Of a stretch of 64,000 nt of DNA, positions 2,525 to 64,000 are shown piece by piece. The translations under genes and the position numbers were made by a program. The stretch is taken from positions 15,688 to 79,687 of the forward strand of contig JAPLXU010000011.1 in assembly GCA_026395915.1 (NCBI GenBank), in the 5' to 3' direction. This DNA comes from Candidatus Nomurabacteria bacterium. GTDB lineage: Bacteria; Patescibacteriota; Minisyncoccia; Phycocordibacterales; UBA9973. Every line of letters begins with the position of its first letter. Position 1 is the stretch's first letter. Below the pieces are notes generated by a model. It had not been told where the DNA came from, did not search any database, and saw only the letters and a program-made list of their open reading frames with translations.

Positions 2525-3997
2525 TTATTTTAACAAATCTATTAAAATTTGCTTCGTCACTGCCGGATTCGCAGAACCTTTTGTTTCTTTCATTATTTGG
2601 CCAACGAGAGACATAAGCGCCTGCTCCTTGCCACCTTTATAATCCGCAACAACTTTCGCATTCGCCTCGATAATTTTCTGCGCGATTTGTTTGAGCTCGT
2701 TTGTGTCGTTACTTTGAAGCAGTTTTTTCTCTGTCGCGATTTTGAGCGGAGAACCGTCATCAATCACAATAATCGCTAAAATATCTTTGGCAGCGCGGGA
2801 AGAAATTTTATTTTCGGCAACCAAATTTACCAACTCAGAAAAATTATTCGCAGACGGAAGCCTTGCTTCCGTTTTTGCTTTTTTTAGTCCCATAAAATCT
2901 GAGGTTGTATAGTTCGAAGCTATTTTTATTTTTTCTTTGTCTCCCAAGATTTTTGCAACATTCTCGAACCAAGCGCCCAAGAGAGGATCATTTATATAGG
3001 CCTCTATATCTTCGTCTTTGATGCCGAAATCTTTTTTGTATCTAGCGCGCTTCCCCGCTGGCAACTCTGGCAATTCTTTTTTCATCTTTTCCAAATCAAA
3101 AGCTTCGTGCAGTCTTAATTTTGGCAAATCTGGCTCTGGAAAATATCTGTAATCAGCGCTCCCCTCTTTTTTCCTCTGAGAAAAAGTTTTTTGCTTATTT
3201 TCATCCCAGCCACGCGTTTCTTGAATTATCTCCGATTCTTTACCTTCTTCAAAGAGCTGTGCCATGCGATCGAGTTCGTATTTTATGGCTCGTTCGACGC
3301 TTCTAAACGAATTTAAATTTTTCACTTCTACTTTTGTGCCAAGTTTTTTCGGATCAGTTGAAACAGAAATATTCGCCTCAACTCGCATTTCACCCTTTTC
3401 CATATTCGCCTCGGACACGCCCAAATACCAAAGTATGAGCTGAAGCTCTTTTGCAAATCTTGACGCTTTTTCTGCAGCTTCGTCGGAACTTTCCAAAGTG
3501 TGCGGTTCGGTCACAAGCTCCATCAAAGGCACACCAGAACGGTTGAAATCAATCAGAGAATATCCGTCGTTTCGGGTGTTGGACACCTGAAATTCTGGGT
3601 GTCCAACACCCGAAACATGCTTATTGTTGGCCGTATCTTCCTCTAAGTGCACACGAGTTATATCCATTCCGGCTAAATTTCCGCCGGAAACTATCGGATA
3701 TTTGTATTGCGAAATCTGATAACCTTTAGGGATGTCCGGATAAAAATAATTCTTGCGATCAAACTCAGAAAAGTCGGCAATTTTGCCATTAATAGCCAAA
3801 CCAACTTTGATCACATTCTCTATCGCTTTTTTGTTTATAACCGGCAGAGCTCCTGGATGCGCCATACAAACCGGACAGACATTCACGTTCGGCTTTTCCT
3901 CGTCAGGATCGTTCTTGCAAGCGCAAAACATCTTTGTCTGTGTAGCCAATTCAGCATGTATTTCCAAACCAATTGTCGGATAATATTTTTTACTCAT
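2525..3997 (-). CDS. gatB: Asp-tRNA(Asn)/Glu-tRNA(Gln) amidotransferase subunit B
   Basis: 490 aa. GatB N-terminal motifs (YYPTIGLEIHAEL, CPVCMAHPGALP, RVHLEEDTA) and a C-terminal GatB/YqeY domain. It carries an in-frame palindromic insert at 3569-3616. Confidence 0.95.
   Translation of the reverse strand: MSKKYYPTIGLEIHAELATQTKMFCACKNDPDEEKPNVNVCPVCMAHPGALPVINKKAIENVIKVGLAINGKIADFSEFDRKNYFYPDIPKGYQISQYKYPIVSGGNLAGMDITRVHLEEDTANNKHVSGVGHPEFQVSNTRNDGYSLIDFNRSGVPLMELVTEPHTLESSDEAAEKASRFAKELQLILWYLGVSEANMEKGEMRVEANISVSTDPKKLGTKVEVKNLNSFRSVERAIKYELDRMAQLFEEGKESEIIQETRGWDENKQKTFSQRKKEGSADYRYFPEPDLPKLRLHEAFDLEKMKKELPELPAGKRARYKKDFGIKDEDIEAYINDPLLGAWFENVAKILGDKEKIKIASNYTTSDFMGLKKAKTEARLPSANNFSELVNLVAENKISSRAAKDILAIIVIDDGSPLKIATEKKLLQSNDTNELKQIAQKIIEANAKVVADYKGGKEQALMSLVGQIMKETKGSANPAVTKQILIDLLK
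3569..3616. repeat. Perfect 48-nt palindrome (20-bp arms, 8-10 nt loop) embedded in-frame in gatB
   Basis: cgtttcgggtgttggacacc-tgaaattc-tgggtgtccaacacccgaaacg. Encodes HVSGVGHPEFQVSNTRN, an extra loop relative to typical GatB between LEEDAGK and DGYSL. Confidence 0.8.
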
Positions 3998-8412: not shown

Positions 8413-9129
8413 ATGTCTAAAATTATATTTTTCGATACGGAAACTACCGGTAACACAGAAAAGGATTTCTTGTGCCAGATTGCTTACAAAACGGGTGGCG
8501 AAAGTTTCACCGGCCTCTACAAGCCTCCGATAAGAATCCCGCCGGAAGCTTCCGCTGTGCATCACATCACAAACAAAATGGTTGCTGAAAAACCAACTTT
8601 TTATCAAAGTGGCGATTTACAAAAAATAAAAAAACTTTTCGAAGACAAAAACTCCATAGTCGTTGCCCACAACGCTCCTTTTGACCTGGCAATAATAAAA
8701 AAGGAAGGCATTACGCCCGCAAATTTTATCTGCACGCTTCGATTGGCAAGATATTTAGATAAAGAAGAAAAAATCGAGAGGTTCAATCTGCAATATCTGC
8801 GTTATTTGCTTGAAATAGAGGTAAACGCTACGGCCCACGACGCGTTGGGAGACGTCTTGGTGTTGGAAAAACTTTTTGAAAGATTGAAAGACAAAATGAA
8901 AAAAGAAGATAAGTTAAGCGACGAAGAAATATTAAAAAAAATGGTAGAAATATCTTCTCATCCATCGCTCTTGAGAACATTCGGTTTTGGTAAATACAAT
9001 GGCAAAAAAATCGAAGAGGTGGCAAAAATAGACAAAGGTTACCTAGATTGGCTTCTAACGCAGAAACTCGCAAGTGACCAAATAGACGAAGATTGGATTT
9101 ACACTTTGAAGCACTATTTGGGGAAATAA
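8413..9129 (+). CDS. DnaQ-like 3'-5' exonuclease with C-terminal ExoX-like (DUF3820) domain
   Basis: Exo motifs FFDTETTG, VAHNAPFDL, HDALGDV. The C-terminal GKYNGKKIEEV..DKGYLDWL matches the ExoX C-terminal domain. Confidence 0.85.
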   Translation: MSKIIFFDTETTGNTEKDFLCQIAYKTGGESFTGLYKPPIRIPPEASAVHHITNKMVAEKPTFYQSGDLQKIKKLFEDKNSIVVAHNAPFDLAIIKKEGITPANFICTLRLARYLDKEEKIERFNLQYLRYLLEIEVNATAHDALGDVLVLEKLFERLKDKMKKEDKLSDEEILKKMVEISSHPSLLRTFGFGKYNGKKIEEVAKIDKGYLDWLLTQKLASDQIDEDWIYTLKHYLGK

Positions 9130-9245
9130 ATTACCACCTCGCTCTGACTAAAAAGTCAGAGCACTCCTCCTTATCAAGGAGGAGATTCCTAGAAACTCCC
9201 CTCCTTGTGGAGGAGGGGGTTGGGGGTGGTGATTATTTTTTGCAA
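9130..9245. repeat. Array of three G/C-rich hairpins plus T-tract (terminator of the exonuclease gene), containing direct repeat GGAGGGGGTTGGGGGTGGTGATT
   Basis: CTCTGACT-aaaa-AGTCAGAG, CTCCTCCTT-atc-AAGGAGGAG and CCCCTCC-ttgt-GGAGGAGGGG, followed by the G-run and T-tract. Confidence 0.7.
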
Positions 9246-9569
9246 AACTCCATCTATATTTGTATTTATTTCTGTATTAGTAAAACGTAAAACTTTTATG
9301 CTAAGACCTTCAAAAAATTTAGTACGTATCTCGTCATATTTCTGGCTATCTTTTGTAAAATGTTGAGAGCCATCAATTTCTATTGCTAATTTTTTTGTGG
9401 GACAATAAAAGTCTATAATATATCCTCCAATACTATGCTGGCGTCTAAACTTTAGACCTATCTGAGAATTTTTCAGTTTCAACCACAATAAAATTTCTTG
9501 AGGCGTGCTATTGTTTCTTAATTCTTTTCTTCTTGGAAACAATTTTTTGATATTGTTGATTGTTTTCAT
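9189..9569 (-). CDS. DUF559 (Vsr-like) endonuclease domain protein
   Basis: Internal start MKTINNIKK. DUF559 motifs (TPQEILLWLKL, IDFYCP..LAIEIDGSQH, R..FLE-like tail). The ORF-track N-terminal extension is only translation of the G-rich hairpins. Confidence 0.75.
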   Translation of the reverse strand: MKTINNIKKLFPRRKELRNNSTPQEILLWLKLKNSQIGLKFRRQHSIGGYIIDFYCPTKKLAIEIDGSQHFTKDSQKYDEIRTKFFEGLSIKVLRFTNTEINTNIDGVLQKIITTPNPLLHKEGSF

Positions 9570-9574
9570 TGTCT

Positions 9575-9690
9575 TACCCCCCTCCTTAGTTAAGGAGGGG
9601 GCTGGGGGTGGTAATTCCGAATTCGGATCACCACCCCGCCCTTCAGGCACCCCTCCTTTCACAAGGAGGGGTTGTTCATTTAAGCATAAT
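9575..9690. repeat. Second hairpin array upstream of the DUF559 gene, containing direct repeat GGAGGGGGCTGGGGGTGGTAATT
   Basis: CCCCCTCCTT-agtt-AAGGAGGGGG, GGGGTGGTaaTTCCGAATTCGGAtcACCACCCC and CCCCTCCTT-tcac-AAGGAGGGG. Confidence 0.7.
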
Positions 9691-9748
9691 GCTTGATAAT
9701 AATAACATACATATGTTAAAATCTTCTTAAGCGAAAGGACAAAAAAAT

Positions 9749-9913
9749 ATGATTGTACAAATTAGTCTTGGGAGATTCTCAAGGAGCGGAAATTATCAAT
9801 TCTTTCCAAACCAAGGGTTCAAGTTTTCCGAAGAAGCTTCGAACGAGCTATGGCGTCGTCTAAAAAAGATTTGGGATGAACGCAAATGGCCAAAGCGAAA
9901 GCGGAAGCCATAG
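9749..9913 (+). CDS. Small hypothetical basic protein, 54 aa
   Basis: ATG preceded by aaagga. Ends at a strong terminator (AAGAAGCCG...CGGCTTCTT plus T-run at about 9935-9975). An ACATATGTTAAA motif sits at 9709-9720 upstream. Confidence 0.3.
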   Translation: MIVQISLGRFSRSGNYQFFPNQGFKFSEEASNELWRRLKKIWDERKWPKRKRKP

Positions 9914-10029
9914 ACGTGTGGAGCGCGCATCGCCGTCTGTAAGAAGCCGAGCTTCTACAGGCGGCTTCTTATTTTTACTGTACATTTTTATCATTGTTAT
10001 TTTTTAACTTAAAATGTTAAAATAAATGC

Positions 10030-11082
10030 ATGAATAATATGATCTGGATAATTTTGGGAATAATTGTAGGAGGTATAATTACATATCTCGTTTTGAATAA
10101 AAAAAAGGAAGAAAAAAAGGACGACCAAAAAGATGTAGGCCTTAATCTTATTTTGACCCAGATAAACGAACTCTCGCGAACAGTCGATAATAAAATTGGC
10201 GAATCTCATAAACAGGTCAATGAAAGTTTGAAATTTCATTCGAGCGAATCGAATAAAATTATTCGAGATGTGACTGAACGACTCACAAGGCTCGATGAAA
10301 CAAACAAGCAAGTCATTTCTTTCGCAGATCAATTGCAAAGCTTGGAAAACATTTTGAAAAATCCAAAACAACGCGGAATTTTGGGAGAATATTATTTAGA
10401 AACTGTCTTGAAAAATGTCTTGCCTCCTGGGAGCTACCAGATGCAATATGAATTCCCTGATAAAACCATAGTAGACGCTGTCGTTTTTGTAAAAGATAAA
10501 ATTATTCCGATAGACTCGAAATTCTCACTGGAGAATTACAATAAAATGGCTGAGGAACGAGACGGAACAGAGAAAAAAAGATTGGAGACAGTTTTCATAA
10601 ACGACTTAAAAAATAGAATTACCGAGACAGCAAAATATATTCAGCCGACACAAGGCACTACGGATTTCGCTTTCATGTTCATCCCTCATGAAGCTATTTA
10701 TTATGATCTGCTTACAAATAAAGTCGGAGCTGGAGATGAAAATGAAAATCTGATTCAGCGAGCGGCGGGAAAATATAAAGTCATCATCACCTCTCCCACT
10801 TCATTTTTGGCATATTTGCAAACCGTCTTGCAAGGTTTGAAGGCCTTGAAAATCGAAGAATCTGCTAAAGAAATAATAAAAAAAGTTGAGGATCTCGGTA
10901 GACATTTAAAATCTTATGACGAATATCACAACAAATTAGGAAACGCGCTTAGCACTGTCGTGAACCATTACAACGCTTCTAATAAAGAATTAAAAAAGAT
11001 TGACAAAGATGTGCTCAAAATTGCCGGTTCTTCGCCGGAACTTTCTCTTTTGGAAATTGAAAAACCAAAAACTGAAGAATAA
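10030..11082 (+). CDS. rmuC: DNA recombination protein RmuC
   Basis: 350 aa. N-terminal TM, long coiled-coil, C-terminal RmuC core (FMFIPHEAIYYDLL). Confidence 0.8.
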   Translation: MNNMIWIILGIIVGGIITYLVLNKKKEEKKDDQKDVGLNLILTQINELSRTVDNKIGESHKQVNESLKFHSSESNKIIRDVTERLTRLDETNKQVISFADQLQSLENILKNPKQRGILGEYYLETVLKNVLPPGSYQMQYEFPDKTIVDAVVFVKDKIIPIDSKFSLENYNKMAEERDGTEKKRLETVFINDLKNRITETAKYIQPTQGTTDFAFMFIPHEAIYYDLLTNKVGAGDENENLIQRAAGKYKVIITSPTSFLAYLQTVLQGLKALKIEESAKEIIKKVEDLGRHLKSYDEYHNKLGNALSTVVNHYNASNKELKKIDKDVLKIAGSSPELSLLEIEKPKTEE

Positions 11083-18336: not shown

Positions 18337-18383
18337 AGATAGCGCCTAAAGCCCTATTTTAGATAGGGCTTTAGGCGCTATCT
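18337..18383. repeat. Perfect 21-bp stem / 5-nt loop hairpin at the ftsI 3' end, between ftsI and murF
   Basis: AGATAGCGCCTAAAGCCCTAT-tttag-ATAGGGCTTTAGGCGCTATCT. Confidence 0.75.
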
Positions 18384-25991: not shown

Positions 25992-26017
25992 CCACTTGGA
26001 GGCTTTGCCTCCAAGTG
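25992..26017. repeat. REP-like hairpin, copy 1 (cacTTGGAGGCtttGCCTCCAAgtg)
   Basis: 9-bp stem, 3-nt loop, immediately upstream of the RAYT gene. Confidence 0.75.
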
Positions 26018-26030
26018 CTATACTTGAGTT

Positions 26031-26678
26031 ATGTCATTAAGAAAAACCAATTTTGTAGAAGGTGAATATTATCATATCTACAATAGAGGCGTTGATAAGC
26101 GAGAAATTTTTTCCGATAAATTTGACTTAGAAAGATTCTTACAAAGTATGGAAAGTTTCAATACTAAGGATCCTATCGGGAGTTTATATGAAAATAGTTT
26201 TATAAAAAAGAAAGCACTTGGAGGCAAAGCCTCCAAATTGGTTAATTTTGTGGCTTATTGTTTGAACCCTAATCATTATCATTTTATTATTACTCCCCTC
26301 GTAGAAAAAGGAATCGAAAAATTCATGCAACGACTTGGAACAGGCTATACCATGTACTTCAATGAGAAAAATAAAAGATCTGGTTCGCTTTTTCAAGGGA
26401 AATTTAAAAGTAAACACTTAAATTCAAATGAATATTTACTTCAAGCAAGCTCCTATGTAAATTTAAACAACTATGATAAAAATGGGGTAATCAAAAAATC
26501 TTTAAACTCGTCAAGTTGGATTGAATATACTCAACCAACTAATAATGTTGAGTTTTGTGAAAAATCGATAGTGCTTGGTCAATTTGAATCCAAAAAAGAA
26601 TATGAAAAATTCGCACTGGAAACTTGGAGAAATACATGCGAAAGAAAAGAAGAAATAGAAAATCTTGAATTTATTTAA
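26031..26678 (+). CDS. IS200/IS605-like Y1 transposase, REP-associated tyrosine transposase (RAYT)-like
   Basis: 215 aa. YHIYNRGVDKREIF and NPNHYHFII (HuH) motifs. Associated with three REP-like hairpins, one of them inside its own CDS. Confidence 0.7.
   Translation: MSLRKTNFVEGEYYHIYNRGVDKREIFSDKFDLERFLQSMESFNTKDPIGSLYENSFIKKKALGGKASKLVNFVAYCLNPNHYHFIITPLVEKGIEKFMQRLGTGYTMYFNEKNKRSGSLFQGKFKSKHLNSNEYLLQASSYVNLNNYDKNGVIKKSLNSSSWIEYTQPTNNVEFCEKSIVLGQFESKKEYEKFALETWRNTCERKEEIENLEFI
26215..26238. repeat. REP-like hairpin, copy 2 (inverted orientation), in-frame inside the RAYT CDS
   Basis: cacTTGGAGGCaaaGCCTCCAAattg encodes ALGGKASKL. Confidence 0.7.
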
Positions 26679-27440: not shown

Positions 27441-27467
27441 TACTTGGAGGTCTTGCCTCCAAGTGGG
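27441..27467. repeat. REP-like hairpin, copy 3 (taCTTGGAGGtcttGCCTCCAAGtggg)
   Basis: Together with copy 1 it brackets the 1.45-kb RAYT-plus-membrane-gene insert between ftsA and ftsZ. Confidence 0.75.
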
Positions 27468-35247: not shown

Positions 35248-36468
35248 ATGCAAAACCCATATCAAAATGCAATGAAGCAGTTAGACAAAGTCGCTAAAGT
35301 TAAAAACTTCAATGATAGTTTCATCGCTCGTTTGAGACAACCTGACAGAGACATCAGAATCTCAATCCCAGTCCAAATGGATGATAAATCTTTAAAAATT
35401 TTTGAAGGATACCGTGTGGAATACAACAACGCGCTCGGACCTTACAAAGGCGGAATCAGATATCACCACGACACTGAAATCAACGAGGTGAAAGCTCTTG
35501 CTTTTTGGATGACGCTCAAATGCGCTGTTGCAAATATTCCTATGGGCGGGGGCAAGGGCGGGATAACAGTTGAGCCGAGAAATTTATCAAAGGGAGAATT
35601 GGAAAGACTTTCTCGTGAATGGGTGCGTAGCCTCTCTGATATTTTGGGACCGCGTAAAGATGTTCCTGCGCCGGATGTGAACACAACGCCGGAAATAATG
35701 ACTTGGATGACGGACGAATACGCAAAAATAACTGGTGACAAAACTAGGGCAACTTTTACCGGCAAACCGATAGAAAAAGGTGGTTCGGAAGGACGCGGGC
35801 CAGCGACTGGCTTGGGTGGATTTTATGTTTTTAACGCGCTTCGCAAAGACCTCAAACTTCCGGAAAAATGTAAAGTTGCGATTCAGGGCTTCGGAAATGT
35901 CGGAAGCAATGCGGCGGAAATTTTTGCTGAACATGGGCATAAAATAATAGCAGTTTCAGATTCGAAAAGCGCGATATTCAACAAAGACGGTCTTGATTTG
36001 AAAAAAGTTCAAGCTCACAAAAAAAGCACGGGCGCTCTGAAAGATTTTCCGGACGCGAAAAATATTACAAATGAAGAATTGCTCGAACTCCCCTGCGACC
36101 TCCTTGTACCTGCTGCTTTTGAAAATGTTATAACCGAACAAAATGCCCGAAAAATAAAAGTCAAAGCCATTCTGGAACTTGCGAATGGTCCCGTGACACC
36201 AGAAGCAGATGAAATCTTGTTTAAAAAAGGCATTCCAGTAATACCGGATGTTTTGGCAAATTCTGGCGGGGTTACTGTGTCATATTTCGAATGGGAACAA
36301 AATCTAAAAAACGAACATTGGACTGAAAAAGAAGTTTTCAAAAAATTAAAACCAATGATGGAAGACGCATCAAAAAAAATATTTGAAGAATCAAAAAAAT
36401 CAAGAACTTCATTGCGTATGGGAGCCTTCATTTTGGCACTTGAAAGAATACAGAAAAAAATGCTATAA
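35248..36468 (+). CDS. gdh: Glutamate dehydrogenase (Glu/Leu/Phe/Val dehydrogenase family)
   Basis: 406 aa. GPYKGGIRYH, active-site GGGKGG, Rossmann GFGNVGS. Confidence 0.9.
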   Translation: MQNPYQNAMKQLDKVAKVKNFNDSFIARLRQPDRDIRISIPVQMDDKSLKIFEGYRVEYNNALGPYKGGIRYHHDTEINEVKALAFWMTLKCAVANIPMGGGKGGITVEPRNLSKGELERLSREWVRSLSDILGPRKDVPAPDVNTTPEIMTWMTDEYAKITGDKTRATFTGKPIEKGGSEGRGPATGLGGFYVFNALRKDLKLPEKCKVAIQGFGNVGSNAAEIFAEHGHKIIAVSDSKSAIFNKDGLDLKKVQAHKKSTGALKDFPDAKNITNEELLELPCDLLVPAAFENVITEQNARKIKVKAILELANGPVTPEADEILFKKGIPVIPDVLANSGGVTVSYFEWEQNLKNEHWTEKEVFKKLKPMMEDASKKIFEESKKSRTSLRMGAFILALERIQKKML

Positions 36469-63786: not shown

Positions 63787-64000
63787 GTGTTATTTTTTAT
63801 GCAAATTTATTCCCCTCTTGAGGGGTGGATTTTGTAATCAAAAGACGGGGTGGATTGCATTTTTTCCTCACTTTTTTAGCTTGACATTGGTTTTGGGTTT
63901 GCTATACTTCCAGTACAAGTGCCTTCGGGCTCGCCCTTCGAAAGAAGGGAGACAAGTCAAAAAACACATTAGAAAAAACTTCTGATGTGTTTTTGTATTC

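Follow-up and report, generated by a model that had tools for sequence, protein, structure and literature searches.

A 64-kb stretch of a Candidatus Nomurabacteria contig (JAPLXU010000011.1; 64,000 nucleotides, referred to below as the window) was analysed, in which a small gene of the DUF559 family lies between G-rich hairpin repeats. We consider it probable that a widely distributed selfish cassette is present here in one copy, namely a minimal Vsr/EDxHD-type DUF559 endonuclease gene with its cognate triplex-type repeats. This interpretation is carried by the nuclease fold and conserved catalytic residues of the protein, the status of the locus as an insertion, the pairing of gene and repeats across phyla, the co-variation between the two, the gene-less derivatives, and the insertions found in frame within other genes. 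A first-pass annotation of the window had proposed a self-contained insert, such as a selfish endonuclease cassette or a miniature element. The proposal is supported on the three points that had been named as able to refute it: the hairpins are not ordinary terminators, the repeats recur elsewhere, and empty sites exist in related genomes.

The DUF559 gene and its repeat units

Four G-rich repeat units frame the gene, with a pair of units on either side of it (a layout written here as FR-gene-RF). A unit begins with a hairpin whose 5′ arm is pyrimidine (CCCCTCCTT) and whose 3′ arm is purine (AAGGAGGGG); a loop of 2-3 nt or a spacer hairpin follows, and a G-rich segment GGGGTGGT comes last. The features of the locus are as follows.

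9189-9569, minus strand: DUF559 gene, encoding a small Vsr/EDxHD-type nuclease of 126 aa.
9130-9184, minus strand: long unit, with the hairpin CTCCTCCTTgatAAGGAGGAG (9164-9184), the spacer hairpin GCTCTGACTttttAGTCAGAGC (9141-9162) and the third segment GAGGTGGTAAT (reverse complement of 9130-9140).
9198-9234, plus strand: short unit, with the C-stem CCCCTCCT, a loop, G-stem 1 AGGAGGGGG, TT, and G-stem 2 GGGGGTGGT(GATT).
9129-9234, plus strand: gene-less composite element (RF), with AATTACCACC, spacer hairpin, hairpin 1, linker, hairpin 2 and GGGGGTGGTGATT.
9577-9587, minus strand: Shine-Dalgarno-like AAGGAGGGGGG, 7 nt ahead of the ATG, as read from the sequence.
9578-9616, plus strand: short unit, CCCCCTCCTT-agtt-AAGGAGGGGG-CT-GGGGGTGGTAATT.
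9617-9626, no strand: central palindrome CCGAATTCGG, which joins the two right-hand units and forms the tip of the imperfect hairpin 9605-9637.
9627-9672, minus strand: long unit, with the hairpin ACCCCTCCTTgtgaAAGGAGGGGT (9649-9672), the mini-hairpin GCCTgaaGGGC (9638-9648) and the third segment GGGGTGGTGAT (9627-9637).

The annotation of a 126-aa DUF559 gene between G-rich hairpin repeats was borne out. The protein matched the Pfam profile PF04480 (DUF559) with 107.5 bits against a cut-off of 20.6 (E = 4e-31), and the folding of the flanks relative to shuffled sequence gave z = -8.2 on the left and -7.3 on the right. The protein is 100% identical to a Candidatus Nomurabacteria protein, and it scored 75.9 bits with the NCBIfam YcjD model, below the equivalog cut-off of 218. 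In an alignment of 26 DUF559 sequences, residues E65, D67, H71 and D80 were invariant (numbered on the 127-aa translation of 9189-9572, which is one above the numbering of the 126-aa protein), and this set corresponds to the EDxHD pattern of the I-Bth0305I homing-endonuclease family (PMC3384342). A profile search of the PDB matched only the uncharacterised structure 3HRL (1e-23). When an AlphaFold model of the protein (predicted local distance difference test score, pLDDT, 82) was compared with known structures using Foldseek, 3HRL was again the closest, followed by the I-Bth0305I catalytic domain 3R3P (E = 5e-4, target-normalised TM-score 0.74). The 126-aa protein is the catalytic core only, with no separate DNA-binding domain.

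The fold and catalytic logic are distantly common to Vsr, and JGI calls homologues "very-short-patch-repair endonuclease". However, the protein gives no Vsr-family match in Pfam (just DUF559 and MTES_1575), no cytosine-5 methyltransferase gene is adjacent, and the likeness to Vsr (1VSR) found by Foldseek is much weaker (TM-score 0.44); the identification as a Vsr repair endonuclease was therefore rejected. PADLOC recognised no defence system, merely weak nuclease-domain similarities. No intron or intein features were found at the locus, and Rfam, searched at gathering and permissive thresholds, gave nothing except tRNAs and chance matches.

The purine arm AAGGAGGGGGG is likely to be the ribosome-binding site of the gene. 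It is the 3′ arm (mRNA sense) of the perfect hairpin 9578-9601, which has an 11-bp stem and may sequester the site. At its other end, the gene reads into the left repeat, with the last 14 codons lying within the short unit 9198-9234 on the opposite strand.

Perfect G+C-rich hairpins were found at 9141-9162, 9164-9184, 9198-9218, 9578-9601 and 9649-9672, and an imperfect one at 9605-9637; the right unit pair forms a row of four hairpins immediately upstream of the DUF559 gene. Three hairpins of a shared family had been described on each side. The hairpins are present, but 9141-9162 lies outside the CCTCC family and is a variable spacer hairpin within the long unit. A direct repeat on both sides of the gene also exists, although its length is 37 nt and not 23 (9198-9234 and 9580-9616, 78% identity). 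Inverted-repeat pairs are formed by 9129-9138 with 9607-9616, 9198-9220 with 9649-9671, and 9223-9233 with 9627-9637. The segment GGGGTGGT occurs three times in the 64 kb, each time at the locus (0.31 expected), and CCCCTCC occurs nine times, six of them at the locus (2.4 expected).

The 106-nt gene-less composite 9129-9234, taken as a single strand, gives a four-way junction fold of -64.8 kcal/mol (z = -8.2). In terms of the criteria for miniature inverted-repeat transposable elements, it is shorter than 200 bp and has the inverted terminal ends AATTACCACC / GGTGGTGATT, and identical ends bracket the gene at two other DUF559 loci, L001 and L002 (such handles are used for the loci compared, where they must be told apart). 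The earlier suggestion of a miniature element is thus matched by a gene-less form, present in the window and, alone, at the same site in L106.

One further unit was found in the window, and it is the only one outside the locus (about 0.05 expected).

63812-63856, plus strand: solitary short-stemmed long unit, with CCCCTC-tt-GAGGGG, TTTTGtaatCAAAA and GGGGTGG.

This relative of the hairpins had been noticed before; it fits the long-unit grammar, and its coordinates are those given here and not 63806-63819. The unit lies in a divergent intergenic region, directly upstream of a TTGACA/TATACT promoter-like pair.

Triplex-type grammar of the units

In these units, the third segment is a mirror of the purine arm in which G is kept and A becomes T or A. 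Examples are AAGGAGGGGG followed by GGGGGTGGTA, AAGGGGGAGG followed by GGAGGGGGTC, and AAGGAGAGGG followed by GGGTGAGGTT. This rule was met in 174 contexts across the loci compared, against 0.6% in the control, and the mirror score, 0.95 when calculated with a unit's own stem, fell to 0.80 when the stem was swapped. In the window, the GGAGGAG hairpin goes with GAGGTGGT, and the GGAGGGGG hairpins go with GGGGGTGGT. The third segment of the long unit 9130-9184 mirrors AAGGAGGAG by the same rule (G for G, T/A for A), and therefore co-varies with the A-for-G difference of that hairpin. The two short units obey the triad rules of the purine motif (G for G, A or T for A) at 9/9 and 10/10 positions. 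The mini-hairpin also co-varies across loci (GCCC/GGGC, GGCC/GGCC, GTCC/GGAC and longer forms).

A similar grammar is known from the BoxC/PIT/TMECO repeats. The TMECO motif is CCCTCNCCC-N3-6-GGGNGAGGG-N3-GGGNGAGGG, with 23 copies in Escherichia coli K-12 and 3610 in 262 proteobacterial genomes (Holder et al. 2015, PMC4666352). Triplex motifs of this kind are known from Enterobacteria and cyanobacteria, and G/C-rich ones are abundant in the latter; formation of a triplex in vitro has been shown for the E. coli TMECO only (PMC4666352). The units 9198-9234 and 9578-9616 have the published order of C-stem, loop of 3-6 nt, G-stem 1, short loop and G-stem 2, with the loop between the G-stems of about 3 nt (TTA-like) in BoxC/PIT/TMECO and a mirror-image G-stem 2. 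Further likenesses are that the units are found alone or in inverted pairs, have a high G+C content whatever the host, and lie at variable loci. In contrast, the TMECO consensus CCCTCNCCC...GGGNGAGGG...GGGNGAGGG was not found here; the window has CCCCTCCTT / AAGGAGGGG / GGGGTGGT, some units have a spacer hairpin as loop 2, and the host belongs to the candidate phyla radiation (CPR). The present units also occur in coding sequence and flank a nuclease gene, a link that was not made in PMC4666352. Judged by their sequence, the window units are of the BoxC/PIT/TMECO intrastrand-triplex grammar, in a different sequence variant.

The G-rich runs had also been read as possible G-quadruplexes, which could regulate or destabilise the locus. 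The highest G4Hunter scores of the window do fall here, at 9207 (2.16) and 9587 (1.92), but no canonical four-run G3 motif is present at the locus, a complementary C-run lies near every G-run, and the mirror symmetry with its A-to-T substitution is that which a triplex requires. The quadruplex reading was set aside in favour of the mirror-repeat (triplex) grammar, which fits better, and we regard it as the least probable of the explanations considered. The only canonical four-run G3 motif of the window is at 35544 (GGGCGGGGGCAAGGGCGGG).

The locus is an insertion

The neighbours of the DUF559 gene are an ExoX-like gene (RNase T/ExoX-like exonuclease, 8413-9129), a small open reading frame (ORF) and RmuC (10030-11082), and the locus is an insertion between ExoX and RmuC.

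9130-10013, no strand: segment inserted relative to the ancestral ExoX-stop/RmuC-start junction, consisting of the cassette, the small ORF 9749-9913 and a hairpin at 9940-9971.

The comparison used 80 metagenomic loci in which ExoX is 73-83% identical to that of the window. In agreement with the proposed insert, DUF559 was encoded in none of them (0/80), and the distance from the ExoX stop to the RmuC start was 118 nt or less, mostly 1-27 nt, in 43 of the 67 loci having both genes. The junction is empty in the closest relative, L080 ("gggaaaTAAcgctaaaataaaaacATG"), and the conserved RmuC leader "gttaaaataaatgcATG" picks up again in the window at about 10014. L106 has solely the gene-less composite at this site, inverted relative to the window, and element remnants were found in the gap in L081 and L095. 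A plain repeat-gene-repeat cassette occupies locus L001; in L002 the cassette is oppositely oriented, and a gene-less composite separate from it adjoins RmuC. In each of L106, L001 and the window, the ExoX stop codon (TAA) is adjacent to the element end AATYACCACC or overlapped by it. At a second site, between MetRS and TatD, nine genomes have the insertion, and L006 and L018 lack it.

The gap between ExoX and RmuC is also a hot spot for other cargo (window 9749-9913; L081, L095, L112 and L132). This cargo includes small ORFs starting with MFVKI or MLVQI, like the 54-aa ORF of the window (MIVQISLGRF...), and a 201-aa minus-strand ORF (MGNLEQEIKKKDKRKNIQKIILNT...) in eight relatives. Those of the cargo ORFs that were tested gave no Pfam, NCBIfam or PADLOC match.

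Pairing of DUF559 genes and units across phyla

Relatives of the window protein were sought in one genome per species; more than 580 were found, and 79 loci were kept. The units are present beside DUF559 homologues in many phyla: Patescibacteria, Pseudanabaena (cyanobacteria), Bacteroidota (Spirosoma, Hymenobacter), Nitrospirota, Nitrospinota, Chlorobiota/Ignavibacteria, a gammaproteobacterium and Terriglobia. Hairpins of the unit type occurred at 2.38 per kb within 300 nt of DUF559 genes, at 0.118 per kb elsewhere in the same loci (about 20-fold less), and at 0.025 per kb in the 80 loci lacking DUF559. At least one unit lay within 160 nt in 66 of 83 DUF559 genes. The FR-gene-RF layout was also found in L010, L040 and L052, with CPR, cyanobacteria and Chlorobiota represented.

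The unit variants track the clade of the protein, for example CTCCCCCTT/AAGGGGGAG, CCCTCTCCTT/AAGGAGAGGG and CCCCGCCTT/AAGGCGGGG. Three genomes have two full-length paralogues (L008, L015 and L065), and in every one of them the two paralogues each go with a unit variant of their own.

A covariance model, R1, was built on the gene-less composite, from an alignment in which 93% of cells were paired. RNAalifold preferred to cross-pair the two similar hairpins of the composite, and the four-way structure was therefore imposed by hand. Compensatory changes were seen in six of eight spacer-hairpin pairs of this alignment. The model scored the window composite 9129-9234 at 99.8 bits and found about 80 sites in the DUF559 loci, with gene-less composites in several phyla. 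In the loci lacking DUF559 (0.48 Mb) it found three sites, all in the ExoX-RmuC gap.

The repeats might instead be autonomous BoxC-like elements that pile up at hot spots, with DUF559 as an unrelated gene there or a passive passenger. Gene-less units are common in L007 and L008, the ExoX-RmuC gap of relatives also takes unrelated cargo, and most TMECOs of E. coli are far from its DUF559 gene, ycjD, as this explanation would have it. However, it does not sit well with a 20-fold enrichment around one gene family across phyla, a layout that recurs in CPR bacteria, cyanobacteria and Chlorobiota, or units that co-vary with protein clade and paralogue, and the other cargo of the ExoX-RmuC gap rarely has units (the three sites in 0.48 Mb). 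We think it improbable.

Insertions within coding sequence

The units are dispersed in some Patescibacteria, with many of them in frame within conserved genes; among 140 hairpins distant from DUF559, 52 were at least 50 codons inside open frames of at least 150 codons. These in-frame insertions were seen in related genomes, and none was seen in the window. In RecA, an insertion of 9-17 residues (e.g., PLPNLPLSKGEEKGGG) was found in three of eight orthologues, and the others have shorter, unrelated residues at this point.

L007, 14071-15141: RecA with unit insertion.
L008, 13372-14457: RecA with unit insertion.
L018: RecA with unit insertion.

FtsK of L008 (14910-17180) has two unit-derived segments that are not in the L007 orthologue, and TatD of L007 (10359-11822) has a private insertion. 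In L007, an element joins a glutamine-amidotransferase-like ORF and TatD into a single open frame.

In Pseudanabaena (L040 8417-11245; also L029, L056 and L071), the whole units-DUF559-units cassette is in frame in an MmeI-family type IIL restriction-modification gene. It lies in the methyltransferase domain just ahead of the GNPPF motif, and the Pfam match is split in two. More solo units are in frame downstream.

These copies bear on whether the hairpins are ordinary signals of gene ends and starts, namely intrinsic terminators plus a hairpin hiding a ribosome-binding site, with no link to mobility. On that explanation one could account for the T-rich tail that follows hairpin 9649-9672 on the plus strand, the ATTTTTT that ends the left element after the convergent ExoX gene, and the Shine-Dalgarno site within a hairpin arm. 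However, 9649-9672 is the only one of the six hairpins with a T-tail, units lie within the coding sequence of RecA, FtsK, TatD and MmeI, and the mirror-repeat third segment plays no part in termination. PIT elements had neither promoter nor terminator activity in published tests (PMC4666352), and the unit sequence is conserved across phyla whose expression signals differ. Because of the single T-tail, the copies in coding sequence and the mirror third segment, the hairpins are not ordinary terminators, and this explanation is very improbable, being effectively excluded.

YcjD and the triplex repeats of E. coli

YcjD, the DUF559 protein of E. coli K-12, is 39% identical to the window protein over the full length, and for both proteins the coding sequence of the C-terminus extends into a repeat (window protein TPNP, YcjD SPSP). 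In K-12 (L161, 1351000-1352300), the GTG start codon of ycjD is inside the 3′ arm of a 16-bp hairpin, and the 3′ end of the gene runs into a degenerate unit. The published TMECO #9 (1351204-1351239) is about 165 nt downstream of ycjD, with a duplicated piece of the ycjD 3′ end in between. PMC4666352 names no DUF559, ycjD or endonuclease, and reports the K-12 TMECOs as always intergenic.

The unit was found in all 5426 of 5426 complete E. coli genomes, at a median of 19 places, and the ycjD region in 3378 of them (absent from 38%). In an evenly spaced sample of 59 genomes, the 37 with ycjD had 17-33 unit places, and the 22 chromosomes without ycjD had 1-20, with fewer than 10 in 13 of the 22. 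This link between ycjD and copy number is suggestive and is confounded by phylogeny.

The DUF559 protein could also serve the host, as a structure-specific nuclease that processes or restrains triplex or hairpin repeats, with the repeats regulating the gene or co-selected with it and spreading otherwise. The units stall polymerases and are linked to genome instability (PMC4666352), the fold is common to the repair enzyme Vsr, the neighbours ExoX and RmuC are genes of DNA metabolism, and a purine arm overlapping the ribosome-binding site would permit feedback. A host-serving role is difficult to reconcile with the patchiness of the gene, which is absent from 80/80 close ExoX relatives and 38% of E. 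coli genomes, with its differing sites and orientations, with its position in frame inside the MmeI gene, and with paralogues of one genome each having their own unit variant. We consider this role unlikely, although somewhat less so than that of a passenger at repeat hot spots, and the rival explanations are all weaker than that of a selfish cassette.

Proposed mechanism and points against it

In the proposed mechanism of the selfish cassette, the nuclease would recognise the units as palindromic duplex or as extruded hairpin/triplex, and would nick or cut there. Repair of the break against another unit-bearing copy would carry the gene into unit pairs in a homing-like manner, and the same repair could also yield gene-less derivatives, inversions and new solo units. 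Such a route would explain why the gene is often between two oppositely oriented units. Insertions would survive in intergenic positions just after stop codons, or where a protein loop tolerates additional residues in frame. The purine arm by the start codon would supply the ribosome-binding site, and its hairpin probably throttles translation. The evidence for mobility is presence and absence, inversion, and dispersal, and from these we infer the mechanism, including the cleavage target, the mobilisation of units by the enzyme and the route of repair.

Several points weigh against the interpretation as a selfish cassette. The units are little dispersed in the 64-kb window, where four of five are at the locus; in the related genomes L007, L008 and L048 they are dispersed. 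No target-site duplication was definable between the filled and empty sites compared, because these are too divergent. A convincing promoter for the minus-strand DUF559 gene was looked for at the locus, and none was found. The DUF559 fold is not one known from transposases, the protein is without the additional DNA-binding domain that I-Bth0305I has, and cleavage or binding of the units by this protein is a prediction. The association of gene and units could also arise from the units being insertion hot spots. In E. coli, most units and TMECOs are far from ycjD, and the relation of ycjD to copy number has the phylogenetic confounding mentioned above. An empty site for ycjD was sought, but strains lacking ycjD instead carry a different island after sapF, with a major facilitator superfamily (MFS) efflux gene, and therefore offer no clean empty site. 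Holder et al. never found mobility functions beside TMECOs in general (PMC4666352).

Comparison with known systems

The EDxHD homing endonucleases (I-Bth0305I; PMC3239194, PMC3384342) are the best characterised structural relatives, and the E, D, H, D catalytic pattern is conserved. As with these enzymes, the DUF559 gene is free-standing, has filled and empty alleles (ExoX-RmuC and MetRS-TatD), and in one insertion splits a conserved gene (MmeI). Unlike them, DUF559 here has no intron or intein and no N-terminal DNA-binding domain, its flanks are repeated structured units and not a unique target gene, and cleavage of the empty site is a prediction.

The REP/BIME repeats and RAYT (REPIN) are alike in having a single-copy nuclease-type gene flanked by dispersed palindromic repeats, often as inverted pairs, of a variant matching the gene. 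However, the DUF559 enzyme is PD-(D/E)XK/Vsr-like and not an HUH Y1 transposase, and the present repeats have a mirror third stem and also colonise coding sequence. Rickettsia palindromic elements (Ogata 2000, cited in PMC3184786) are likewise palindromic repeats found in frame in conserved genes, to which they add short peptides, but they have no associated gene and occur in Rickettsia only, whereas the units described here have a cognate nuclease gene and form a family that spans phyla.

Other hairpins in the window

Another hairpin family (CTTGGAGGC / GCCTCCAAG) has three copies in the window (25993-26017, 26218-26236 and 27442-27464) and is unrelated to the DUF559 units. Two very long perfect hairpins were also found, at 3569-3616 and 18337-18383, with stems of 19 and 20 bp.

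Significance

In E. coli, knowledge of BoxC/PIT/triplex repeats goes back to the 1990s, and they were reportedly described by Bachellier and Hofnung in that decade and by Hoyne and Maher in 2000. Their copies have been enumerated in hundreds of genomes and a connection with genome instability has been made, and still no function, origin or mobility factor has been found for them. DUF559 is a very large family of no known function, which includes YcjD and also a protein of solved structure, 3HRL. The repeat grammar and the DUF559 family are already known. In the searchable literature no report was found of a systematic pairing between genes and units, of co-variation between them, of polymorphic insertions, of units in CPR bacteria or of in-frame colonisation, and papers beyond it may differ.

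As a wider proposal, which we put forward only tentatively, the DUF559 nucleases including YcjD may be the missing mobilising enzymes of the BoxC/PIT/TMECO repeats. Gene and repeats would then form a previously unrecognised class of prokaryotic mobile element, which would use structure-specific cleavage and homing-like repair, could pass between phyla as distant as those of CPR bacteria, cyanobacteria and Enterobacteria, and could enter essential genes while keeping their reading frame.

Linking DUF559 and the triplex repeats gives each a testable role and extends the repeat family to CPR bacteria. It also shows that the reading frames of RecA, FtsK, TatD and a restriction enzyme can accommodate repeats of this kind, up to an entire nuclease cassette. 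YcjD and the 23 BoxC copies of E. coli K-12 provide a simple model system.

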